A stretch of 64,000 nucleotides of DNA from contig JAQVYB010000001.1 in the NCBI GenBank assembly GCA_028708815.1, positions 13,589 to 77,588 on the forward strand, read 5' to 3'. Under the pieces are notes generated by a model, which saw only the letters and a list, made by a program, of their open reading frames with translations, had not been told where the DNA came from and did not search any database. Position numbers and translations under genes: made by a program. Below, one piece after another: positions 55,465-64,000 of this stretch (its first letter is position 1; every line of letters begins with the position of its first letter). The DNA is from Kiritimatiellia bacterium (GTDB taxonomy: Bacteria > Verrucomicrobiota > Kiritimatiellia > RZYC01).

Positions 55465-56043
55465 ATGACTTTCGACGCCTCCATAGAGCACTTGGCCGAT
55501 TGGATTGATGAGGCCGCTTCGATTGTCGTATTAACCGGGGCGGGCATTTCCGTGCCCTCCGGCATCCCTGATTTTCGATCTGCGGGTGGACTCTACTCCC
55601 TGGAGCAGAATCGCAATGTCTTTGATTTGGATGCCTTTCGTGAAGACCCGACGTGGTATTATCGCTTTGCCAGGGAGTTTTATCCGTTGGTGTGGTCGGC
55701 TGTTCCCAATATCGCTCACCGCATGACGGCGGGCTGGGAACGCGGCGGGCGCAAGGTGGAAGTAGTGACCCAGAACGTGGATGATTTGCATCAGCGTGCC
55801 GGTTCTTCGAGCGTGTATCCGTTGCACGGGGATATGATGCAGAGCACCTGCCTGCGTTGTGGTCGGCAAACAGAGGCGATGTCCCTGAATGAAGTCATCC
55901 GCCGCGGCGAAGTGCCGCATTGTACGTGCGGTGGCGTTTATAAACCGAATATCACTTTTTTCGGGCGATTTGATTCGTGTCTTCGAGGCCTTACGGGACC
56001 AGGCCGGGATTCAAGCTTAACCAGCAACAGGGAAATGCAATGA
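55465..56043 (+). pseudogene. Sir2-family NAD-dependent deacylase (CobB-like), 3'-truncated and frameshifted after the Zn-ribbon
   Basis: N-terminus IVVLTGAGISVPSGIPDFRSAGGLYS, QNVDDLHQRAG, HG and zinc CxxC...CxC are intact through ...KPNITFFG. Sir2-like sequence then continues in another frame (DLIRVFEALRDQAGIQA) and stops at about 56030. The C-terminal Rossmann half is absent. Confidence 0.5.
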
Positions 56044-57236
56044 GTAGAGAAAACAACGATGGATGGATCAGCCAAGGGGTGAAATTGATCGACTCGGAGT
56101 CGGTGTATATTGATCCGGCTGTTCCGGCGGGGCATATTGCGGAGGGCGTGACGATTTATCCCGGATGCCGGATTATGGGGGAGAAGACGGCGATTGGGCC
56201 GGGTTGCGTGATTGGACGCGAAGCGCCCGCCACGGTGCTGAACTGTCAGTTGGCCTCCAAGGTGGATCTGGCGGGCGGGTATTTTGAAGAGTCGGTGTTT
56301 TTGTCGAAGGCCTCGGCGGGGAGTGGTGCGCATATTCGTCCGGGCTGTCTGCTCGAAGAAGAGGCGGGCGTGGCGCACAGCGTGGGCTTGAAGCAGACCG
56401 TGTTTCTGCCCTGCGTGACAGCGGGAAGCCTGATCAATTTCTGCGATGCACTGATGGCGGGCGGTCGGAACCGAAAAGAACACAGTGAAATCGGATCATC
56501 GTATATTCATTTTAATTTTACGCCGCATGGAGACAAGGCCACGCCGTCGCTGATCGGTGATGTGCCGCGTGGCGTGCTGATGGATAATGATCCCGTATTT
56601 CTGGGCGGGCAGGGCGGCTTGGCCGGGCCGTGCCGTGTGGCGTTCGGCACCGTGATTCCGGCGGGCTCGGTGCTGCGCAGTGATGTGCTGCAACCGGGTA
56701 TGCTGCATCTTCCTGCCGCGTCGTCGCCCAAAACGGAGTGTTACGATATGCGTGTGTATAAACGGATTCGGCGGGTGGCGCAGAACAATCTGCATTATAT
56801 CGGCAACATATACGCGCTGCGGGAGTGGTATCGGAACGTGCGGTCGCGCATGATGACCGAGACCGTGGCGGACCGGGCGTGCTGCACCGGCGCCATTCGC
56901 GTGCTGAACCTGATTCTGGATGAACGGATGAAACGCCTGAAACAGTGGACCGAAAAACTGGGCGTATCGTATGAGTTGATTCAGGAGAATGCCGCTCTGC
57001 GCGAGTGCGCGGAAGAGCAGGTGGAGTGGATTCGGCAATGGCCCGAGCGCGAGACGTTGCTGAAGACGCTCTTGGGGCAGGAGGCCGATGCGACCGGCAT
57101 CGCGGAGATTGCCACCTCGGCCGCAAATCATGCAAAGGATGGTTTTCTGACCTGGGTGAAGGGCCTGGACGATGCGCAGAAAACGATCATTCGCGCCTGG
57201 TTGGATGAACTGGTTTTGCGTTTTTATGTACGGTGA
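56040..57236 (+). CDS. Left-handed beta-helix (hexapeptide-repeat) domain protein with C-terminal helical domain, function unknown
   Basis: Repeating [LIV]-G-x-x-x-x-I hexapeptide pattern (GVTIYPGCRIMGEKTAIGPGCVIGREA...). Start at MSRENN; ORF-track start is 55977. Confidence 0.55.
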   Translation: MSRENNDGWISQGVKLIDSESVYIDPAVPAGHIAEGVTIYPGCRIMGEKTAIGPGCVIGREAPATVLNCQLASKVDLAGGYFEESVFLSKASAGSGAHIRPGCLLEEEAGVAHSVGLKQTVFLPCVTAGSLINFCDALMAGGRNRKEHSEIGSSYIHFNFTPHGDKATPSLIGDVPRGVLMDNDPVFLGGQGGLAGPCRVAFGTVIPAGSVLRSDVLQPGMLHLPAASSPKTECYDMRVYKRIRRVAQNNLHYIGNIYALREWYRNVRSRMMTETVADRACCTGAIRVLNLILDERMKRLKQWTEKLGVSYELIQENAALRECAEEQVEWIRQWPERETLLKTLLGQEADATGIAEIATSAANHAKDGFLTWVKGLDDAQKTIIRAWLDELVLRFYVR

Positions 57237-57248
57237 ATGTTGCCGGGG

Positions 57249-57860
57249 TTATTCGTACATCCGCAGCTTCTTCATGGTTTCAATGGTGTCGGGATATAAC
57301 TCGCCCAGCGCGGGTCCGTTGGTCATGGAGATGTCGTCCAGATGAAACCCGTGGGCGCAGAAAACGCCGTAGAGTCCCCAGGCATCGGGGGAGTCGTCGG
57401 CCATGCGGAAGCCCATCCAGGTGTTTGCCGGGATGATGATCTGCGGTTGTTGGCCCAGGCGCGGGTCGGGACCGAGGACGAAGGTTTTGAAGGAACCATC
57501 GGGATAAATGAGCATTTGATTCATGGGTGCGCCGGCATGGTAGGCGAGCAATTCGTCACAGGTGATTTTGTGCCAGGGATCAAAGAGGCCGCCGGACATG
57601 AGATAATAGATGCTGCTGGCGGCGGCGCGGGGTTTATCGATGTCAGCCTTCACGTTGCATTCATAGAGTTCTTTGTAGTAACCGATGCAGGCGCCGTCGT
57701 TCATGGGGATCAGCCCAAGGCCGTCGATGATTTCCTGTCGGGTTGGCGCGGGTGTCGGTTCTGATGCGCAACAGGCGGCATGAAGGGGCTCGGCCGTCAC
57801 CAAGACGTTAAATATAAACAGAGCGGCTCCGGTTGTTATGAATCGTGTTGAGTTCTTCAT
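57249..57860 (-). CDS. Secreted cupin-like protein, hypothetical
   Basis: Signal peptide MKNSTRFITTGAALFIFNVLVTAEPLHA. Polypyrimidine Shine-Dalgarno GGAGGAGGAGGAGG upstream. Confidence 0.5.
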   Translation of the reverse strand: MKNSTRFITTGAALFIFNVLVTAEPLHAACCASEPTPAPTRQEIIDGLGLIPMNDGACIGYYKELYECNVKADIDKPRAAASSIYYLMSGGLFDPWHKITCDELLAYHAGAPMNQMLIYPDGSFKTFVLGPDPRLGQQPQIIIPANTWMGFRMADDSPDAWGLYGVFCAHGFHLDDISMTNGPALGELYPDTIETMKKLRMYE

Positions 57861-58148
57861 GGTTGTTCCTCCTCCTCCTCCTCCTTCTTTATGCAGTGTG
57901 AACGATACAGTCAGTACCTTAAAACTTCACTTCCTGCAAAAAAATATAAAGGAGAATTTCATGCATTAAAACAATGAATATTCATCACGGCACGGGCTTT
58001 AGGCGCGTGTGATTCGGCCCTGAAGGGCCGCCAATGTTTCCAAAATCGCGCCGGCGATTTTCACTAAAGCGGGCTGGAACCCGCCGATAACTCACTCCCC
58101 AATGCGGAAAATATCCATACACGTTAACTGGGTTGCGGGGCACCCGCT

Positions 58149-60692
58149 TTAGATCGGCTGTCCCTGTTTGTCGATGTGGATGTCGAGGGCGTGAATGATG
58201 GGTTTTGCTTTCGGCTGTGTGGTTCGGCAGGGCAGGGCGGCCATCTGCATGAGTTCGCACATGACGCCGTCGATCACTTCGCCGGGAACGCCGTAGAAAA
58301 GGAAATTCACGGGCATGCCATCGGCGATAAGGATGATTTCGCGCTGATCGGATTCGGCGGATTTTGAATGGAACGTGAAACGGATACGCGTTCCGAGATT
58401 CATGTGCGTCAGCGGGTCGCGCAGGTCGTAGGTATGCAGATCGACATCGCGTCCGCCGATGGTGGGCGTCGAGGCATCTCGGAGTTCCTGAATCCAGCGG
58501 GAGATATCCGAGAATTCGGCTGTTTTGGTTGAGCCGCTGGCCAGATAAATTCTTTTTTTGCGTCCGTGCAGCAGGAGGCGCTCCATATGCCCGGCTTGTA
58601 ATACGGAGACGCCTGTGATGCCCAGAAACACGTCCAGTTCCAGAAAAATATCGTCGGGGATATCGTCCAGCCGCACATATTCCGGAGCATTGCAGAGGAT
58701 GGCGCTGGATTCGGGCGAGGCCTGGAGGTCGGTGCCGATGGCGTGGTTGTCCGGCAGGCGCTGTGCAAAGAGGGAAAGCAGAAAGCGTCCGATGTTGCCG
58801 CGCGAGCCGATCACGGCGCCGTGCCGGTTGAAGAGACAATCCCCCAGGCCGTTCATCACCAGTTCGGTGGTCATCAGCAGCGAGAGTGCGCAGGCTCGGG
58901 CTTCTTCCACGTTCTTGCAGATGGATAGGGCGATGGTATAGGCCGGGAAATGAAGGCGACCGAAGGCCTGCTGCACCTCGAGCAGTTGGTCGTATCCGTT
59001 GCGCGTGTGTTCCACCGTGGCGTGGACAACCCCGGCCAGCCAGTCGGACAGTGGGACCTTGGTCGGGTCGGGTTCCGAGGGGTCTTTCCAGGTCTCGGGC
59101 GCGATATGGAAGTGGCTCATAAAATCGGCGACCGTTCTGTTTTCCAGGCAGAATTGATTCATCAGCGGCGCGAGGTAGCCGCCATCTTCAATGAGCAGGA
59201 CCTGGCCGTCGCGCTCTTTGGCCCGGATGACTTCCTGAAAGAAAATGTGCGCCGTAGCCAGTCGCATAGCGGGTGTATATTCCACCGGTTGGCTGTGCAG
59301 GTGTTCGTCCAGATGTTCCAATCCGGTGGTTGGGGAAAACTGATGCGACAGCACATACATGCCGCACAACAGGTCGTCGGAATCCATTTGCTGCAACGCA
59401 TGAAAGGAGAACCGCTCTTCCGGCAGGGCCAGCAGCGCCTCCACGAAGGAGTCCGGCACAATGCCTTTGTAGCGGATGAAGAGCGTGTGCAGCGCAGCGC
59501 AGCCTGTTTCGCTCAGCGCCTGAATGAGACCCAGTACTTCCGAGGTGAGGTGATGCACGAGCACAACGGATGTTTTGGCAAACAGGTCGTGGTTTTGCTC
59601 TGCGAATGCGTGCAGGGCGGGCATGCGTTCGAGATGGGTTTTCAGCGAGGGAATTTCCCGTCGTTCATCCAGATTGATGTTCAGGCAGGTGTTGCGGCGG
59701 GAAAGGTCCAGAAAGGCCCGCCGTCCACCGGAAATCACTTCAATGACCCGGTGTTCATTCAGGATGGCGGCGGCACTGGTGTTTTCGAGCAAGAGGAGGG
59801 CGCGCCCGATCAGTTCGATGATATCGCGCTGCTGTCCGAGCAGGAACGGCACCATCCGGGTGGAATCCCAACGGAAGCGGAGCGTGTTCACAGCGTCCAG
59901 TCCGTTGCCGGCCAGCATGTCAAAGAGGGCAGACTGGCGTCCGGGCACTTCGACATATTCTTCCCGCTGATTCTGGCATTCATGATGGATGGCCGTGGCG
60001 ATGATGGAGGCGAGGGCATCCACATCCTGGAGCAGCAGGTGGTCGCCGCAAGCCTCCGAGGCCCGGTGCGGGATGCGCTTCAGGTTCAGGCGCGGTTTCC
60101 AGGTGTGGTCCAGCGTCAGGCGGATGAAACGGTTTTCGCGTTCGTATTCAAACAGGATTTCAAAGCCGGTTTCCACGGGTTCGCGCGGGAAGGTAAAGAG
60201 CCAGGAGGAGGCGGTCTCTGTCTGTATTTCAGCGGATTTATCGCCCGACTGTCGTTCCTTCCAGAGGTGCTGCACGGCGCTGAATACGCGCAGGAGGCAT
60301 TGATAAAAGAAATCGCGGTCGTCGGTCAGCAGGCGAGCCGGTTCATAGAGTGCAGAGAGCGAGACGTAGCGGATATCCATCTCGGCCAGCTCGGGGGTCA
60401 GGAGTTCATCGACCGGTTGGTGAATGAGGAGGTCGGTGTCTGAGGTTCGTATTTGTTCAAAGAATTGATTGGCCAGCGTTTGGACAAACTGCGGAATGCC
60501 TTTGAAGACCGTACAGGTGGAGAGGTCGATTTGATAATGTCCGTCCTCCTGCATGAGCAGGGAACTGCCCAGAAAGGTCGGGCGGGCGTTGGGTGTGGTA
60601 ACGCGTGGTCTGGCTTCAAAGCGTTCCGCCGTACGCAGGCGGCTCAGAATGCCATTGATGTTTTTCTTTGCCGGGTGTTGTTGATTATTCAT
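58149..60692 (-). CDS. Large (847 aa) cytoplasmic protein of unknown function, third gene of a MinD-like/HAMP operon
   Basis: Long ORF with no recognisable motifs. Overlaps the upstream HAMP gene stop by 8 nt, implying translational coupling. Confidence 0.6.
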   Translation of the reverse strand: MNNQQHPAKKNINGILSRLRTAERFEARPRVTTPNARPTFLGSSLLMQEDGHYQIDLSTCTVFKGIPQFVQTLANQFFEQIRTSDTDLLIHQPVDELLTPELAEMDIRYVSLSALYEPARLLTDDRDFFYQCLLRVFSAVQHLWKERQSGDKSAEIQTETASSWLFTFPREPVETGFEILFEYERENRFIRLTLDHTWKPRLNLKRIPHRASEACGDHLLLQDVDALASIIATAIHHECQNQREEYVEVPGRQSALFDMLAGNGLDAVNTLRFRWDSTRMVPFLLGQQRDIIELIGRALLLLENTSAAAILNEHRVIEVISGGRRAFLDLSRRNTCLNINLDERREIPSLKTHLERMPALHAFAEQNHDLFAKTSVVLVHHLTSEVLGLIQALSETGCAALHTLFIRYKGIVPDSFVEALLALPEERFSFHALQQMDSDDLLCGMYVLSHQFSPTTGLEHLDEHLHSQPVEYTPAMRLATAHIFFQEVIRAKERDGQVLLIEDGGYLAPLMNQFCLENRTVADFMSHFHIAPETWKDPSEPDPTKVPLSDWLAGVVHATVEHTRNGYDQLLEVQQAFGRLHFPAYTIALSICKNVEEARACALSLLMTTELVMNGLGDCLFNRHGAVIGSRGNIGRFLLSLFAQRLPDNHAIGTDLQASPESSAILCNAPEYVRLDDIPDDIFLELDVFLGITGVSVLQAGHMERLLLHGRKKRIYLASGSTKTAEFSDISRWIQELRDASTPTIGGRDVDLHTYDLRDPLTHMNLGTRIRFTFHSKSAESDQREIILIADGMPVNFLFYGVPGEVIDGVMCELMQMAALPCRTTQPKAKPIIHALDIHIDKQGQPI

Positions 60693-61722
60693 TTTCCAAT
60701 CGCAGTTGAGAGGCTTTGGATTTCAGGGTTTTAAAATAGTCGGTTCCGGTGATGCGTGCGACTTCTTTCTGCTGTTTCACCTTGTTGATCTCGATGTGCA
60801 GTTCCTGCACCTGCGATTGCAGCAGGCGTTCGCGTTCGTGAACTTTGGCCGCCATGCATTGGAAGGCGGAGGCCAGTTGTCCGAGTTCGTCGGGTCGCGT
60901 GCAAAGGGAGTCGAGTCCGGTAATCGCCTGATAGTCGCCCGCCGCCACTTGATCGGAAACCTGAGTGAGGTGAATGATGGGGGCGGTGAGCCGTTTAATG
61001 AAAAAGGACGCGGCGATGAAGCCAATCACAATCACCAGCAGGGCCATAATCCCGATCACATACAAATCATTCGCCGCCACCGAAGAGAGCGCATTCCGTC
61101 CCCAGACCGTAACCATCGCCGCCGCATACGTGCCCAGTACGGCCAGACTGGTGAGGTAGGTCGAAAGCAGAAACGTACCGGTGGGGATGGACGGCTTCAG
61201 CAAGCCGAACAGCAGCATAAAAAAGGGAATCAGAATCACGGCAAAGAGCGCATCGGTGATAAATATGGGCAAAAAAAGCTGAAAAAAGGCTGCTTTCAGC
61301 GGGAGATGCCCGTACAGCACCTCCATGCCCGACGAAAACAGAAAGGGGAGCAGCGCCGCGAGAATCAGGAGGAAATACACTTTTTGCATGGCGCGAAGAT
61401 TCGTGACCACGCGCGCGCCGGGGCCCCCGGCCAAGCCCGGAATGAGGCCCATGAGTCCATTGGCCAACGCCCAGTACCAGAGCGGTATCGGATTCTTCGC
61501 CGCCAGCACATAGCCCAGACTGTCGCCTGCGGCCCCGGTAACAAAGCCCGCGAGCGGTCCGAAATACAGCCCCAGGAACATGGGAATGCAGACCTGTGGA
61601 CGCAATTCGGCGAACGAGCAGCCGGGCAGAAAGTGGATGCCGGAGAGATAATTCATCACGCCATACAGGGCCACCCCGACAAAACAGCAGAAATAAACTG
61701 AAGCGGAGGCGTGACGTTTCAT
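60685..61722 (-). CDS. Polytopic membrane protein (ECF-transporter S-component-like helical bundle) with C-terminal HAMP domain and coiled coil
   Basis: At least 6 TM helices in the first 240 aa. HAMP-like segment FFIKRLTAPIIHLTQVSDQVAAGDYQAI...ELGQLASAFQCMAAKV, then a coiled coil. Confidence 0.65.
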   Translation of the reverse strand: MKRHASASVYFCCFVGVALYGVMNYLSGIHFLPGCSFAELRPQVCIPMFLGLYFGPLAGFVTGAAGDSLGYVLAAKNPIPLWYWALANGLMGLIPGLAGGPGARVVTNLRAMQKVYFLLILAALLPFLFSSGMEVLYGHLPLKAAFFQLFLPIFITDALFAVILIPFFMLLFGLLKPSIPTGTFLLSTYLTSLAVLGTYAAAMVTVWGRNALSSVAANDLYVIGIMALLVIVIGFIAASFFIKRLTAPIIHLTQVSDQVAAGDYQAITGLDSLCTRPDELGQLASAFQCMAAKVHERERLLQSQVQELHIEINKVKQQKEVARITGTDYFKTLKSKASQLRLENE

Positions 61723-61726
61723 GGAC

Positions 61727-62485
61727 TTATTGCCCGGTGAGTTGGTTCATGAGGCGTTGATAATGTTGAGTGGTTGGATGATTCGGGAAGCGGCAGACAA
61801 ACAGATCGTGGCTGGCCAGCAGCATCATCTCGTCGCTGTGCGGAATGGCGACCGCCGGCGGAATGCCGTAGGCCGCTTCGATGCGTTTGGAAAGTTCGTC
61901 GATATTTTGCGAGGGCGGAATTTTGTTGGCCAGCAGCAGAATGCGGGGCACTTCCAGCTCGCGCGCCACTTCGATGGTGATGCCGGTGCCCTGATAATCC
62001 TGATAATCCGGACGCATTACAATCACCAGGCTGTTGGAAAGGGCCAGCGAGAGGAGCGTTTCTTCGTTCAGGCCGGGATGCGTATCGATCAGCAGGTAAT
62101 CCAGTTTCAGGTGCGTGATCAGACTGCGAAAGCCTTCGCTCAGCAGGTTGATGTCGTACCCTTCCTGAATGATCCGGGCAATGTCGCCCGCATTGACGCT
62201 GGAGGGAATGAGAAAAATGCGACCGGTGGCGGCTGGTCCGAGCCGATCAGTGACGTCGTAGGCGGTCTCCTGGATTTCGCAGCGACCCCAGAGAAAATCA
62301 TTGAGCACGTGGGTGAAGGATTCCTCGTCCTTTCCGAAAATCACATGAATGCCCGGCGACTGAATATCCGTATCCACAATTCCGACGCGCTTCCCGCTCA
62401 GGGCCATCAGGGCGGCGAGGTTGGCCGTGGTGTTGGATTTCCCGGTACCCCCGCGAAACGAATGGACGGATATGATCTCGGGCAT
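61727..62485 (-). CDS. MinD/ParA-family P-loop ATPase
   Basis: Deviant Walker A SFRGGTGKSNTTANLA. Walker B-like LLIDTHPG. RBS AGGAAA upstream of MPEIISVH. The ORF-track start at 62548 is probably an extension. Confidence 0.8.
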   Translation of the reverse strand: MPEIISVHSFRGGTGKSNTTANLAALMALSGKRVGIVDTDIQSPGIHVIFGKDEESFTHVLNDFLWGRCEIQETAYDVTDRLGPAATGRIFLIPSSVNAGDIARIIQEGYDINLLSEGFRSLITHLKLDYLLIDTHPGLNEETLLSLALSNSLVIVMRPDYQDYQGTGITIEVARELEVPRILLLANKIPPSQNIDELSKRIEAAYGIPPAVAIPHSDEMMLLASHDLFVCRFPNHPTTQHYQRLMNQLTGQ

Positions 62486-62809
62486 AGAGCCGTTTCCTGC
62501 CTTCCTGTGTGAATGATCCTTGTTTACGGGTTTGATACTATAGCGCAAGGATCAGGTTGTACAGGAGGAAAGCGCCGTCCCAGTCATTGGACATAAGCTC
62601 GTAACAGAAGCCTCGATGCGCCGGGGACACCGAGCCTCTTTGGATTCGTAGCATTTGAGTGTTCCTGCACCCCGTCCGGGGCGCTTGAGTTCTTTTGTTT
62701 TCCTATTCCCGGGGTTATTCGCCCCCGGGCTGTATTCCCAGACCCCTCCGGGGTCATTCCTGGAATGTGTCTGGATGCCGCGGTTGGACGAGTAGACGAA
62801 TGCCGATGA

Positions 62810-64000
62810 TCAATTCGCCGGGTAAAGCAGCATGGCTTCGGCTTCTTTCGGCGTTTCGATGTGCGGTTTATATTTTTCCACTTCGTTATGAATCCGTGCC
62901 GCCAACTCTTCGTCATTCAGTTGCACAAGCAGTTCATCCAGTTCTTCGATGTTATAGGGCGGTTGGGCGTATAAAGCGATAAGTTTGAGTTCAAGTGCTT
63001 TTCTGTATACTTTGATAGTATTTCGAATACCTTCCTGACGATTGTTATATGCGGAGACTTCTTTTATCTCAATGTTTCCGTCATCTTTCAGATACATATT
63101 TGCATCTGGGGTCCAATTGTCATCTTGTAATGATAGCATTACATTCCAGGCTTTTACCCATTGTTCCACCTGAACCCTTCGAGATGAAAAGTCTTGGGAA
63201 CCAGAGGTAAGAGTGCTAATAGAATCACAGATGTTGATCGACGAACTATGATCAGTTTTGTCAAACATAAATCGTAGGTGGTCTTGTAAAAACCGTGATT
63301 CGTCGTCGGAACAGTCATATTCCTGATTCAGAGAGGTAGACCATGCTGATTCATTTACGATATTATTTTGAGAAGAAACCTTTTTCTTGAATCTATCGAA
63401 AAGGATTTCCCTGGTAGTTGGATCATAAATATAGGCCTTTGCTGGTATTTTATCCTTTGTAACGGTTACATTTCCAAAAGCGTCAGAGGTAAATATTTGC
63501 TGGGCGGTTCCAAGCAAATGAATATCTTTTCCGTTTACGGTGTAACAAACAGGAATATCAAGCTGAAGATATCCGATGCCATACTCCTTCGGAACAGTAT
63601 TCATTATAATCGCATCATCTTTACCTACGGCAACCGGGGTTTCATTAGCAACAGGAGCAGGCAACCACATCCAACCAGATGCTCCATGAGTGTTGGTTGC
63701 AAATTTTGTCCACAAGCCTGTTGCAAGCGAAGGCATACAATCAATTTCTCTGAAGGCGACATGTTCAAAAGAAACATCGAAAGGCGGTACGTAGTATTTT
63801 GTAGTAAGTGCGACGCTAGAGTATCCATATATATGCCCTACACCTTCTTTTGCGTCTTCCAGATAATAATTAGTGGGGGCTACAATAGTGAGCTCGTTAG
63901 AATAAACATAACCGTCATATTTCCCCAGTATACACATGGTGCCTTTTTCGGGAGGAGCAACAGCAGATGCTGTAGTGCCACGTGTATGGTAGTTACTGCC
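62810..64000 (-). CDS. Partial ORF (5' end beyond window) encoding a protein of unknown function in a low-GC segment
   Basis: The reading frame stays open to the window edge. GC about 40% against about 60% elsewhere. No recognisable domain. Confidence 0.5.
   Translation of the reverse strand, partial: GSNYHTRGTTASAVAPPEKGTMCILGKYDGYVYSNELTIVAPTNYYLEDAKEGVGHIYGYSSVALTTKYYVPPFDVSFEHVAFREIDCMPSLATGLWTKFATNTHGASGWMWLPAPVANETPVAVGKDDAIIMNTVPKEYGIGYLQLDIPVCYTVNGKDIHLLGTAQQIFTSDAFGNVTVTKDKIPAKAYIYDPTTREILFDRFKKKVSSQNNIVNESAWSTSLNQEYDCSDDESRFLQDHLRFMFDKTDHSSSINICDSISTLTSGSQDFSSRRVQVEQWVKAWNVMLSLQDDNWTPDANMYLKDDGNIEIKEVSAYNNRQEGIRNTIKVYRKALELKLIALYAQPPYNIEELDELLVQLNDEELAARIHNEVEKYKPHIETPKEAEAMLLYPAN

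Follow-up and report, generated by a model that had tools for sequence, protein, structure and literature searches.

MinD, ParA and FlhG ATPases have a P-loop fold, conserved Walker A, switch and Walker B motifs, a likely ATP-dependent dimer, and a partner protein with a short N-terminal helix, all of which they share with the ATPase of the locus described here, which lies in a window of 64,000 nucleotides from a Kiritimatiellia bacterium. ECF S-components of the RibU type are small hydrophobic multi-helix bundles, and pairs of sensory rhodopsin II (SRII) with HtrII and other HAMP transducers combine a membrane sensing bundle with a two-helix transducer and a cytoplasmic HAMP domain; a single membrane protein of the locus resembles both. 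AHCYL1/IRBIT and AHCYL2, like the large protein found here, join a module of the S-adenosylhomocysteine hydrolase (SAHH) fold to an added N-terminal region, which in their case mediates interactions with membrane proteins.

It is well supported that the locus is a conserved membrane-associated module, composed of four genes in this genome (Table 1), and that the C-terminal half of its large protein represents a previously unannotated branch of the SAHH superfamily. Given its conservation in many phyla and this SAHH-related half, the module has the look of a nucleoside enzyme system coupled to the membrane that has not been described before.

Gene order, distribution and accessory partners

Table 1. 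Genes and features of the module, with positions in the window.
Feature	Position	Strand	Basis or remark
MinD/ParA-type (SIMIBI) ATPase gene, 252 aa	61727..62485	-	Pfam and PDB profile matches
Polytopic membrane protein gene, 345 aa	60685..61722	-	Pfam ECF-ribofla_trS and HAMP
ECF S-component-like transmembrane domain, residues 15-168	61219..61680	-	PF07155
HAMP domain, residues 240-295	60838..61005	-	PF00672 and PDB profile matches
Conserved C-terminal tail, residues 324-341	60700..60753	-	Homologue alignment; candidate partner-binding peptide
Two-part large protein gene, 847 aa	58149..60692	-	ORF; N-terminal domain and SAHH-superfamily module
N-terminal short helix I-N-G-I-L-S-R-L-R, residues 12-20	60633..60659	-	Predicted structure and motif co-occurrence
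N-terminal alpha/beta domain, residues ~36-348	59649..60587	-	Fold unmatched
SAHH-like module (substrate-binding and Rossmann NAD-binding domains), residues 349-847	58152..59648	-	
Dinucleotide-binding G629-x-x-G632-x-x-G635	58788..58808	-	Homologue alignment; D655 ends beta-2
Spacer, 288 nt, large gene to cupin gene	57861..58148	-	Sequence reading
DUF985/Cupin_5 gene, 203 aa, N-terminal signal peptide	57249..57860	-	PF06172, 103 bits

The membrane-protein and large-protein genes overlap by the 8 nt given in an earlier, sequence-only reading, and the gap before them, which that reading put at 5 nt, is 4 nt long. The ATPase begins at the ATG at 62485, and its homologues all open with M-x-x-I-I-S-V-H-S-F; a longer form starting at a TTG at 62548 was rejected, as the homologue N-termini give it no support.

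Relatives of the large protein were found in 184 species-level genomes from about ten phyla, for the most part uncultured lineages, and the module itself is present in PVC, Desulfobacterota, Elusimicrobia, Sumerlaeota, and other phyla. Because the gene order recurs in other phyla at 36-66% protein identity (59-66% for the ATPase), the arrangement is not due to chance. Among the 53 loci with sufficient flank, the ATPase and HAMP genes adjoin the large gene in 37; in the other 16, neither is nearby, so that the large protein can work without them there, or both partners may be encoded elsewhere in the genome. The ParA and ECF-HAMP genes were always found together. Thus, the proposal that the three genes form one functional module holds. 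The test set against it called for two outcomes together, clear enzyme homology of the large protein and loss of synteny. The large protein does show a real, though remote, homology, whereas the synteny is strongly conserved, and the three-gene finding is therefore refined rather than refuted. Most module loci lie in housekeeping contexts, and in Desulfatiglans anilini the module sits among toxin-antitoxin pairs and integrase fragments.

The module, however, extends beyond three genes. Just outside the stretch first considered lies the gene for an exported DUF985 cupin, and a Zn alcohol dehydrogenase (ADH) takes the place of the cupin in other lineages. The cupin gene directly follows the large gene in 22 loci and the ADH gene is adjacent in 38, and the two are mutually exclusive, never occurring at the same locus. 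Both links are supported by fusion proteins, one joining the SAHH-like module to Cupin_5 and DUF952 (P0143) and the other joining ADH to a full-length large protein (P0074). Nearly all module cupins have a lipobox or signal-peptide leader, whereas the ADHs have no export signals and are cytoplasmic. In other genomes the large and cupin genes overlap or abut, in contrast to the spacer found here, which ends in a (GGA)n-rich ribosome-binding stretch; this cupin gene may be separately transcribed.

The large protein

Searches of Pfam, NCBIfam and PADLOC returned no match for the 847-aa cytoplasmic protein, in which the sequence-only reading had seen no known motif, and residues 1-348 match no solved fold. 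Nevertheless, the C-terminal half has the SAHH fold and forms an NAD-binding module with a GxxGxxG motif and most of the adenosine-binding residues. The top 50 Foldseek matches were all SAHH/AHCYL, and the best PDB match of the sequence profile was adenosylhomocysteinase, over three collinear stretches. The hhalign E-value is 0.0016; identity to SAHH is 15-16%, and the similarity stays under the Pfam threshold. The motifs shared with SAHH (AHCY; PF05221/PF00670) are collinear and comprise MPxL, HxTxE, (D/E)DGG, E-x-T-x-x-G, PAxxxxxSxxK, GxGxxG, an acidic residue after beta-2, and LLA(D/E)GxxVN. The GxxGxxG motif and D655 align with SAHH G220-x-G-x-x-G and E243; across 84 homologues G629, G632 and D655 never vary, and 82 of them keep G635. 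Equivalents of human SAHH His55, Thr57, Glu59, Asp131, Thr157, Lys186, and Asp190/Asn191, whose roles at the ligand site have been described (PMC4647836), are likewise invariant in 82 to 84 of the 84. NAD binding and catalysis by this half are thus far putative.

Unlike SAHH, the large protein contains large insertions, is extended by 348 residues at its N-terminus, and is encoded beside a membrane protein and an ATPase, not beside methyl-cycle genes. Two residues that contact ribose in SAHH are replaced (Glu156 by His562 and His301 by Ser721, the latter followed by an invariant Thr-Lys) and the SAHH C-terminal tail is missing, which makes canonical SAH hydrolysis doubtful. Moreover, invariant residues near the 2'- and 5'-positions differ from those of SAHH, which suggests a substrate other than SAH.

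The N-terminal helix, predicted with low pLDDT, carries a motif present in 58 of the 59 proteins adjoining ParA and HAMP genes and in 1 of the 17 that do not (Fisher p 2.6e-14, for a motif set after data inspection and lineages that are not independent). We infer that it may serve to dock the large protein to the ATPase or the HAMP protein, and its co-occurrence with both would be easier to explain by a protein complex than by a simple pathway.

The ATPase and the membrane protein

The assignment of the first gene to the MinD/ParA ATPases was confirmed by Pfam matches above cut-off to AAA_31 (64 bits), ParA (60 bits), and CbiA (47 bits), and among solved structures archaeal MinD (1hyq, E 1e-13) comes closest. 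In contrast to MinD, ParA and FlhG, the protein scores below every MinD and ParA equivalog cut-off and has Arg where the signature Lys is expected (Walker A F-R-G-G-T-G-K-S, with [F/Y]RGGTGK[S/T] in 58 of 60 module ATPases), and the ECF-HAMP gene is always its pair. Across 60 loci, minC/minE, parB, che, and flagellar genes are not recurrent, in agreement with the reported mismatch to Min, Par, FlhG/FleN, and chemotaxis systems.

The membrane protein consists of an S-component-like bundle, two more transmembrane segments, HAMP, a signalling helix, and a conserved basic tail, an architecture common to 43 homologues. It had been read as an S-component-like protein with HAMP and no kinase, MCP or GGDEF output, and Pfam indeed found ECF-ribofla_trS and HAMP and nothing beyond them. 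PF07155 scored 36.2 bits (cut-off 26.7) over nearly the whole profile (positions 12-167 of 172), and this modest score suggests S-component homology; the RibU equivalog NF010182 gave 34.5, under its cut-off of 99, and a PDB sequence-profile search did not reach an S-component. HAMP is matched by PF00672 (31 bits, cut-off 25) and by PDB HAMP domains at E 4e-5, including that of Af1503 and, among the best matches, TM2 and HAMP of HtrII, and NarQ. Unlike ECF S-components, the protein has an extra transmembrane pair, HAMP, signalling helix and basic tail fused on, and EcfT or EcfA genes are not recurrent in the 60 loci. Unlike SRII-HtrII, it unites receptor and transducer in a single polypeptide and lacks the downstream methyl-accepting or kinase-control part, the output being apparently on separate proteins. 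Its tail, I-T-G-T-D-Y-F-x-x-L-K-x-K-A-x-x-L-R, is kept among 58 module proteins, and 26 homologues all have I324, D328, Y329, F330, L333, L340, and R341; judging from this alignment, it may bind a partner.

Proposed function and alternatives

Our tentatively favoured reading is that a membrane transducer senses a ligand and, with the ATPase as a switch, is coupled to an NAD-dependent enzyme acting on an adenosine-type compound. The membrane protein would be the input, with a small ligand in its S-component-like bundle that the cupin lipoprotein may present or modify in the periplasm, and the ligand state would pass through HAMP and the signalling helix to the cytoplasm. Since the transducer has no fused output domain, we propose that its signal is passed on by the ATPase dimer. 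As an ATP-dependent switch or scaffold, the dimer would engage the basic tail of the HAMP protein and the N-terminal helix of the large protein, so that the enzyme would be recruited to or activated at the membrane. The SAHH-like half would hold NAD and bind an adenosine-type nucleoside, probably with SAHH-style chemistry whose first step is 3'-OH oxidation by NAD (Lys593, Thr563). The cytoplasmic Zn-dependent ADH would be an accessory enzyme in lineages where it replaces the cupin. Proteins from elsewhere in which the SAHH-like module alone is fused to FHA or EF-hand domains show the pattern of a regulated module and speak for this reading.

It is also conceivable, but rather unlikely, that the membrane protein is a true transporter whose substrate is a micronutrient or metabolite containing adenosine, and which the MinD/ParA-type ATPase powers in place of EcfAA'T, with the exported cupin for periplasmic binding or processing and the SAHH-like enzyme, with or without ADH, converting the import. 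The analogy is with ArsA, a related ATPase that drives ArsB. The S-component family match, the lack of recurrent EcfT/EcfA genes, the cupins as exported lipoproteins placed like substrate-binding proteins, and the genes for cytoplasmic enzymes immediately downstream are consistent with uptake. However, the combination of HAMP and a signalling helix serves signalling and is not known from transporters, yet it is conserved here, an S-component energised by such an ATPase has no known case, and the N-terminal helix points to a complex.

We consider it unlikely that the SAHH-like half is a non-catalytic sensor, which would bind adenosine, SAH or NAD(H) and regulate membrane proteins in the manner of AHCYL1/IRBIT, with the ATPase and HAMP protein as targets or co-regulators. 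AHCYL proteins regulate channels and transporters, according to two reports (PMC3492294, PMC4930912), and their structures are among the Foldseek matches (3mtg, 3gvp). The two altered catalytic-site positions would suit a sensor, as would a solo homologue directly after trkA-trkH and the FHA and EF-hand fusions, which befit signalling proteins. On the other hand, the equivalents of catalytic Lys186, Asp131 and His55 and the replaced positions are invariant over 84 species, and the tight linkage, even fusion, to ADH argues for chemistry. AHCYL proteins are close sequence relatives of SAHH, have a disordered phospho-regulated segment where the large protein has a folded domain, and lack a ParA or HAMP partner; they and the large protein are not in a direct evolutionary relationship.

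A spatial positioning or division-type system, in which the ATPase would pattern the membrane and large proteins as in Min, Par or FlhG, is very improbable. This idea of the sequence-only reading agrees with the ATPase family and with a partner carrying an N-terminal peptide, as ParB and MinE do, but nothing specific favours it: the equivalog scores and gene neighbourhoods stand against it, a conserved C-terminal amphipathic helix is not evident, and the module partners are enzymes, which indicate small-molecule chemistry. Anti-phage defence or mobile-element cargo with an NAD-using or nucleoside-modifying effector can practically be dismissed: the Desulfatiglans anilini surroundings and a weak match between the ATPase and PDC-M28B, a candidate protein in PADLOC, speak for it, but PADLOC gave no meaningful match for the large protein or for the membrane protein, which barely touched ZorA (13.6 bits), homologues are absent from 72,556 plasmids and 50,697 phage records, most loci have housekeeping contexts, and an exported cupin and ADH are atypical partners.

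As to the ligand of the proposed transducer-enzyme system, no riboswitch or other clue was found. The module cupin belongs to Cupin_5, as do DUF985/YML079w-like cupins, but those of the module are exported and mostly lipoproteins, whereas most members of the DUF985 family, which has no assigned function (PMC8704077), are cytosolic. One family member, BbDUF985 (PDB 3LZZ), was crystallised with GDP, a guanine nucleotide (PMC11594714), which fits the nucleoside theme of the module.

Fold and ligand site of the large protein

The sequence-only reading had described three tightly packed genes, for a MinD/ParA-like ATPase, a HAMP-domain membrane protein and an orphan protein of 847 aa. ORF calling reproduced the three ORFs, their families and the 8-nt overlap between the membrane and large genes, with only the gap between the ATPase and membrane genes differing by one base (4 nt measured). 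As that reading proposed, the large protein was followed up by profile and structure comparison; it does lack a match in the profile libraries, but its C-terminal half is a relative of S-adenosylhomocysteine hydrolase (SAHH).

Features of the module and of its surroundings in the window
Feature	Coordinates	Strand	Length	Annotation
ATPase gene	61727..62485	minus	252 aa	Pfam AAA_31, ParA, CbiA
Membrane protein gene	60685..61722	minus	345 aa	ECF-ribofla_trS, residues 15-168; HAMP, residues 240-295
Large protein gene	58149..60692	minus	847 aa	no Pfam, NCBIfam or PADLOC match
Cupin gene	57249..57860			DUF985/Cupin_5; beyond the range of the sequence-only reading; 288-nt spacer to the large gene
(GGA)n run	57861..57900			aaggaggaggaggaggaggaac
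ORF directly upstream of the module	62810..63937	minus	375 aa	no Pfam, NCBIfam or PADLOC family
Sir2-family ORF	55465..56043	plus	192 aa	profile positions 1-149 of 180
GlmU-like ORF	55977..57236	plus	419 aa	about 72 bits, far below cut-off
Low-GC end of the window	62000-64000		last 2 kb	47% GC, against 53-63% elsewhere

A PDB search with the single 847-aa sequence returned only noise, and a profile of the 13 relatives found by a first, word-indexed search recovered only generic Rossmann motifs; PF05221 was matched by one of the 13 (E 0.15), and the window protein has no Pfam match. The alignment of these relatives contains invariant motifs (HHxTxE, EDGGY, EHTRNG, PAxxIAxSxxK, GxxGxxG, a later Asp, SGSTK and PxNF) that we took to resemble those of SAHH, and because of this likeness the idea was put to the test. 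The AlphaFold2 model of the large protein was confident (pLDDT 84.6, pTM 0.78), and all of the top 50 Foldseek matches to it were SAHH or AHCYL structures (E 4e-15 to 1e-12; TM-score, normalised to the target, 0.60-0.70). With a 67-sequence profile, the PDB sequence that matched best was that of adenosylhomocysteinase, along three collinear stretches (7r39_A, E 0.003), and hhalign aligned the protein with human SAHH, using a sequence identical to PDB 1LI4, over 361 columns (E 0.0016). The two-domain SAHH fold, with its substrate-binding and Rossmann NAD domains, is present. In contrast to SAHH, the window protein does not reach the gathering score of Pfam AdoHcyase or AdoHcyase_NAD, and it lacks the C-terminal tail that completes the NAD site of the neighbouring subunit; the alignment stops at residue 392 of the 432 in the human enzyme, which is also where the window protein ends.

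Ligand-site residues of human SAHH and their counterparts in the window protein
Human SAHH	Window protein
His55	His381
Thr57	Thr383
Glu59	Glu385
Asp131	Asp503
Glu156	His562
Thr157	Thr563
Lys186	Lys593
Asp190/Asn191	Glu596/Glu597
G220xGxxG	G629xxGxxG
Glu243	Asp655
His301	Ser721
His353	Val802

The mapped side chains of SAHH contact the adenine ring as well as the hydroxyls of the ribose, and its catalysis involves Lys186, His55 and Asp131 (PMC4647836). Within the adenosine-contact and catalytic set (His55, Thr57, Glu59, Asp131, Glu156, Thr157, Lys186, Asp190 and His301), seven residues are kept in the window protein, whereas Glu156 and His301 are replaced by residues that are both invariant in the large-protein family. 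Almost all mapped positions, including these two, are invariant among 84 species-level homologues with identities down to about 30%: Glu385 is found in 82 of the 84, as is Gly635, G629, G632 and D655 occur in all, and Glu596, aligned with Asp190, varies next to an invariant Glu597. As His353 touches adenine by its main chain only, the change to Val802 need not matter. The NAD-binding GxGxxG of SAHH and the acidic residue after beta-2 (G220..G225 and E243) are matched as well.

The large protein therefore has the SAHH fold, with an NAD motif and an adenosine site most of which is kept. We conclude that the C-terminal half should bind NAD and an adenosine-type nucleoside, and it probably catalyses a related but different chemistry. 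Canonical SAHH was rejected as its identity on the grounds of the subthreshold Pfam score, the two replaced contact residues and the missing tail, and the protein is taken to form a new branch within the superfamily, outside the SAHH family proper.

Distribution, gene order and accessory enzymes

An exhaustive profile search extended the family to 799 cluster representatives at E<=1e-3, or 156 at E<=1e-30, and at least 184 species-level carriers in about ten phyla emerged when one genome was scanned for each species. These include Verrucomicrobiota, Kiritimatiellae, Lentisphaerae, Desulfobacterota (Syntrophales, Smithella and Desulfatiglandales) and Elusimicrobia, as well as Spirochaetes, Acidobacteria, Gemmatimonadota, Sumerlaeota, Dependentiae and Bipolaricaulota. 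Near-identical module proteins were found in a Kiritimatiellae metagenome-assembled genome, and no homologue of the large protein was found on plasmid or phage records, so that a link to mobile elements was rejected. One relative, a 1854-aa gene model with an M4 peptidase domain, comes from the anaerobic amoeba Mastigamoeba balamuthi, so that the family reaches eukaryotes. SAHH is usually regarded as a single, highly conserved enzyme family, and a deep unannotated branch of this breadth, with its own invariant active-site variant, argues for a nucleoside reaction that is so far undescribed. The literature that we searched holds no description of a bacterial SAHH-like family of this kind.

Gene order was compared by calling ORFs in 89 fetched sequences (88 loci and the window region), which were searched with HMMs of the module proteins, the other ORFs being clustered. 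Conservation of the gene order, suggested as a check in the sequence-only reading, was borne out: the ATPase and HAMP genes lie directly upstream of the large gene in 37 of the 53 loci, taken from the genome scan plus the window, that had enough flank. A zinc-dependent alcohol dehydrogenase (Zn-ADH) gene stands between the HAMP and large genes in 21 loci, a Cupin_5 gene follows downstream in 12, and 4 have neither; of the remainder, 7 show only the Zn-ADH beside the large gene and 9 none of these partners. The ParA-like and ECF-HAMP genes always co-occur, and an ADH and a cupin were found together in none of 77 loci. The ADH is an MDR enzyme of the threonine- or polyol-dehydrogenase-like type without a leader, and a lipobox or signal-peptide leader precedes nearly all cupins of the module, which points to their export. 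Thus, the module is real, and the place of its accessory enzyme is taken in some loci by an exported cupin and in others by a cytoplasmic ADH.

The window cupin matches PF06172 at 103.3 bits (cut-off 25) over profile positions 1-138 of 139. Both accessory links are backed by fusions, for the cupin in relative P0143 (SAHH-like, Cupin_5 and DUF952) and for the ADH in P0074 (ADH joined to a full-length large protein), and the C-terminal module is elsewhere fused to FHA or EF-hand domains. P0147 is an EF-hand fusion, and P0166 is the Mastigamoeba gene model. One DUF985 structure contains GDP (PMC11594714), and the function of DUF985 is otherwise not known (PMC8704077). The module would give a genomic handle on these cupins, a family found in all kingdoms.

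Several loci show other surroundings. In L003 (5182-13722), a solo homologue without the N-terminal helix directly follows trkA-trkH and converges on metH and a gene for MTHFR, which hints at a link to K+ transport or the methyl cycle. The L008 locus of Desulfatiglans anilini (GCA_000422285.1; 2006-10312) holds a module without a cupin; around it are integrase fragments and the toxin-antitoxin pairs HicAB, MazEF/PemK and HigBA, and the module there thus sits in a variable island. In L089 (378-5572), a relative consisting of the C-terminal module alone lies among Dyp-peroxidase-like, Polyketide_cyc2, Cupin_2 and YCII genes, a context that looks like secondary metabolism, and in L017 (5453-7573), from a Syntrophobacteraceae genome, the large gene is directly followed by another HAMP-containing ORF, some 700 aa long. 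In eight, mostly spirochaetal, loci (L050, L054, L055, L062 and L067-L070), the solo homologue comes after a gene for the methyltransferase PrmA and another, conserved gene of some 600 aa that has no Pfam family; this recurrence was judged to be lineage synteny, and the two were rejected as module partners.

A possible membrane signal-to-metabolism coupling

Seven or eight hydrophobic segments were recognised in the membrane protein; of these, we infer that six form an S-component-like bundle and that a transducer-like pair precedes the HAMP domain. The bundle matches PF07155 at 36.2 bits (cut-off 26.7; profile positions 12-167 of 172), a match also precomputed for most of 43 homologues, and known S-component equivalogs are not reached (NF010182, 34.5 against 99; TIGR04518, 19.5 against 60), so that identity with RibU was rejected. 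The HAMP domain follows a transmembrane helix (PF00672, 31 bits; PDB HAMP matches to E 4e-5), the profile of the protein matching the HAMP of Af1503, the TM2 and HAMP of HtrII, and also NarQ. The protein stops about 50 residues later in a helix and basic tail, without a further Pfam domain, and this tail after the signalling helix is conserved (I-T-G-T-D-Y-F-x-x-L-K-x-K-A-x-x-L-R). As there is no fused output domain, identity with a chemotaxis or two-component transducer was rejected.

The ATPase, a P-loop protein of the CbiA/ParA/AAA_31 families (Pfam 47-64 bits, above cut-offs), is the most conserved component of the module, with 59-66% identity across phyla, and among solved structures it is nearest to archaeal MinD. 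Its Walker A, [F/Y]RGGTGK[S/T] in 58 of 60 module ATPases, differs from the deviant KGGxGK[ST] of MinD/ParA by an Arg at the signature-Lys position. Neither minC/minE nor parB/parS families recur among the neighbours of 60 loci. MinD/ParA proper was rejected because of this Arg, the missing partner genes and equivalog scores far below their cut-offs (minD_arch, 77 against 201.75; minD_bact, 51 against 212.9; ParA_partition, 44 against 180).

At the start of the large protein, a short helix is predicted (INGILSRLR, residues 12-20). Of the 59 large proteins whose genes lie beside ParA and ECF-HAMP genes, 58 carry a motif matching it, against 1 of the 17 without such neighbours (Fisher p 2.6e-14); that single case is an ORF-extension artefact. 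The association is a lead rather than proof, since it rests on non-independent lineages and on a motif chosen once the sequences had been inspected. The helix is reminiscent of ParB and MinE, each of which contacts its ATPase by an N-terminal peptide.

Every piece of the module belongs to a known superfamily, and the combination matches no described system; the literature searched on the architecture, PF07155, DUF985 and bacterial SAHH-like proteins does not describe it. The most far-reaching reading, a rather improbable one, is that a HAMP transducer on a vitamin-transporter-like ligand-binding bundle, without a fused output, acts through a MinD/ParA-type ATPase switch on a dedicated enzyme of the SAHH superfamily. 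This enzyme would produce or break down a small molecule derived from adenosine, perhaps a signal, with periplasmic DUF985 cupins as ligand-handling partners, and the whole would be a new coupling of membrane signal to metabolism. In the mechanism that we favour, a ligand would bind in the membrane bundle, the HAMP domain would relay its state to the ATPase dimer, and the dimer, by engaging the HAMP tail and the N-terminal helix of the enzyme, would control or localise the latter. As a clue to the ligand, Rfam riboswitches were sought in the window and nine related loci, and none was found.

Among four rival explanations, an ATPase-energised uptake-and-processing system carries the most weight; it would account for the S-component-like bundle, and neither EcfT nor EcfA genes recur among the 60 gene neighbourhoods compared, though a shared energising module may be encoded elsewhere in the genome. 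Next comes a non-catalytic, IRBIT-like sensor, to which the replaced contact residues would be relevant, as would, on the other side, the seven that are kept. A positioning system, for which the family of the ATPase would speak and its missing Min and Par partners would not, has less weight still. A defence system is the weakest, and this identity was rejected since PADLOC components were not matched: the large protein had no match, the membrane protein reached ZorA at only 13.6 bits, and the ATPase matched weakly, to the candidate PDC-M28B.

There is a real chance that the principle of the proposed coupling is new. For HAMP proteins without an output domain, the module suggests an explanation that can be put to the test, and a ParA/MinD-type ATPase would have in it a role other than positioning, that of a switch. 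The cultured carriers, Desulfatiglans anilini and the spirochaete Leptospira ellisii, make experiments feasible.

Flanking sequence in the window

The low-GC end of the window, in which the 375-aa ORF lies, may be foreign DNA. On the other side of the module, the short Sir2-family ORF overlaps the beginning of the next ORF; it may have been truncated or frameshifted, or its start may have been mis-called. That next ORF and the cupin gene are convergent. Its sole resemblance is to the acetyltransferase part of GlmU, a left-handed beta-helix, and it has a helical C-terminal extension of about 170 residues. The (GGA)n run precedes the cupin gene as an extended Shine-Dalgarno-like stretch.
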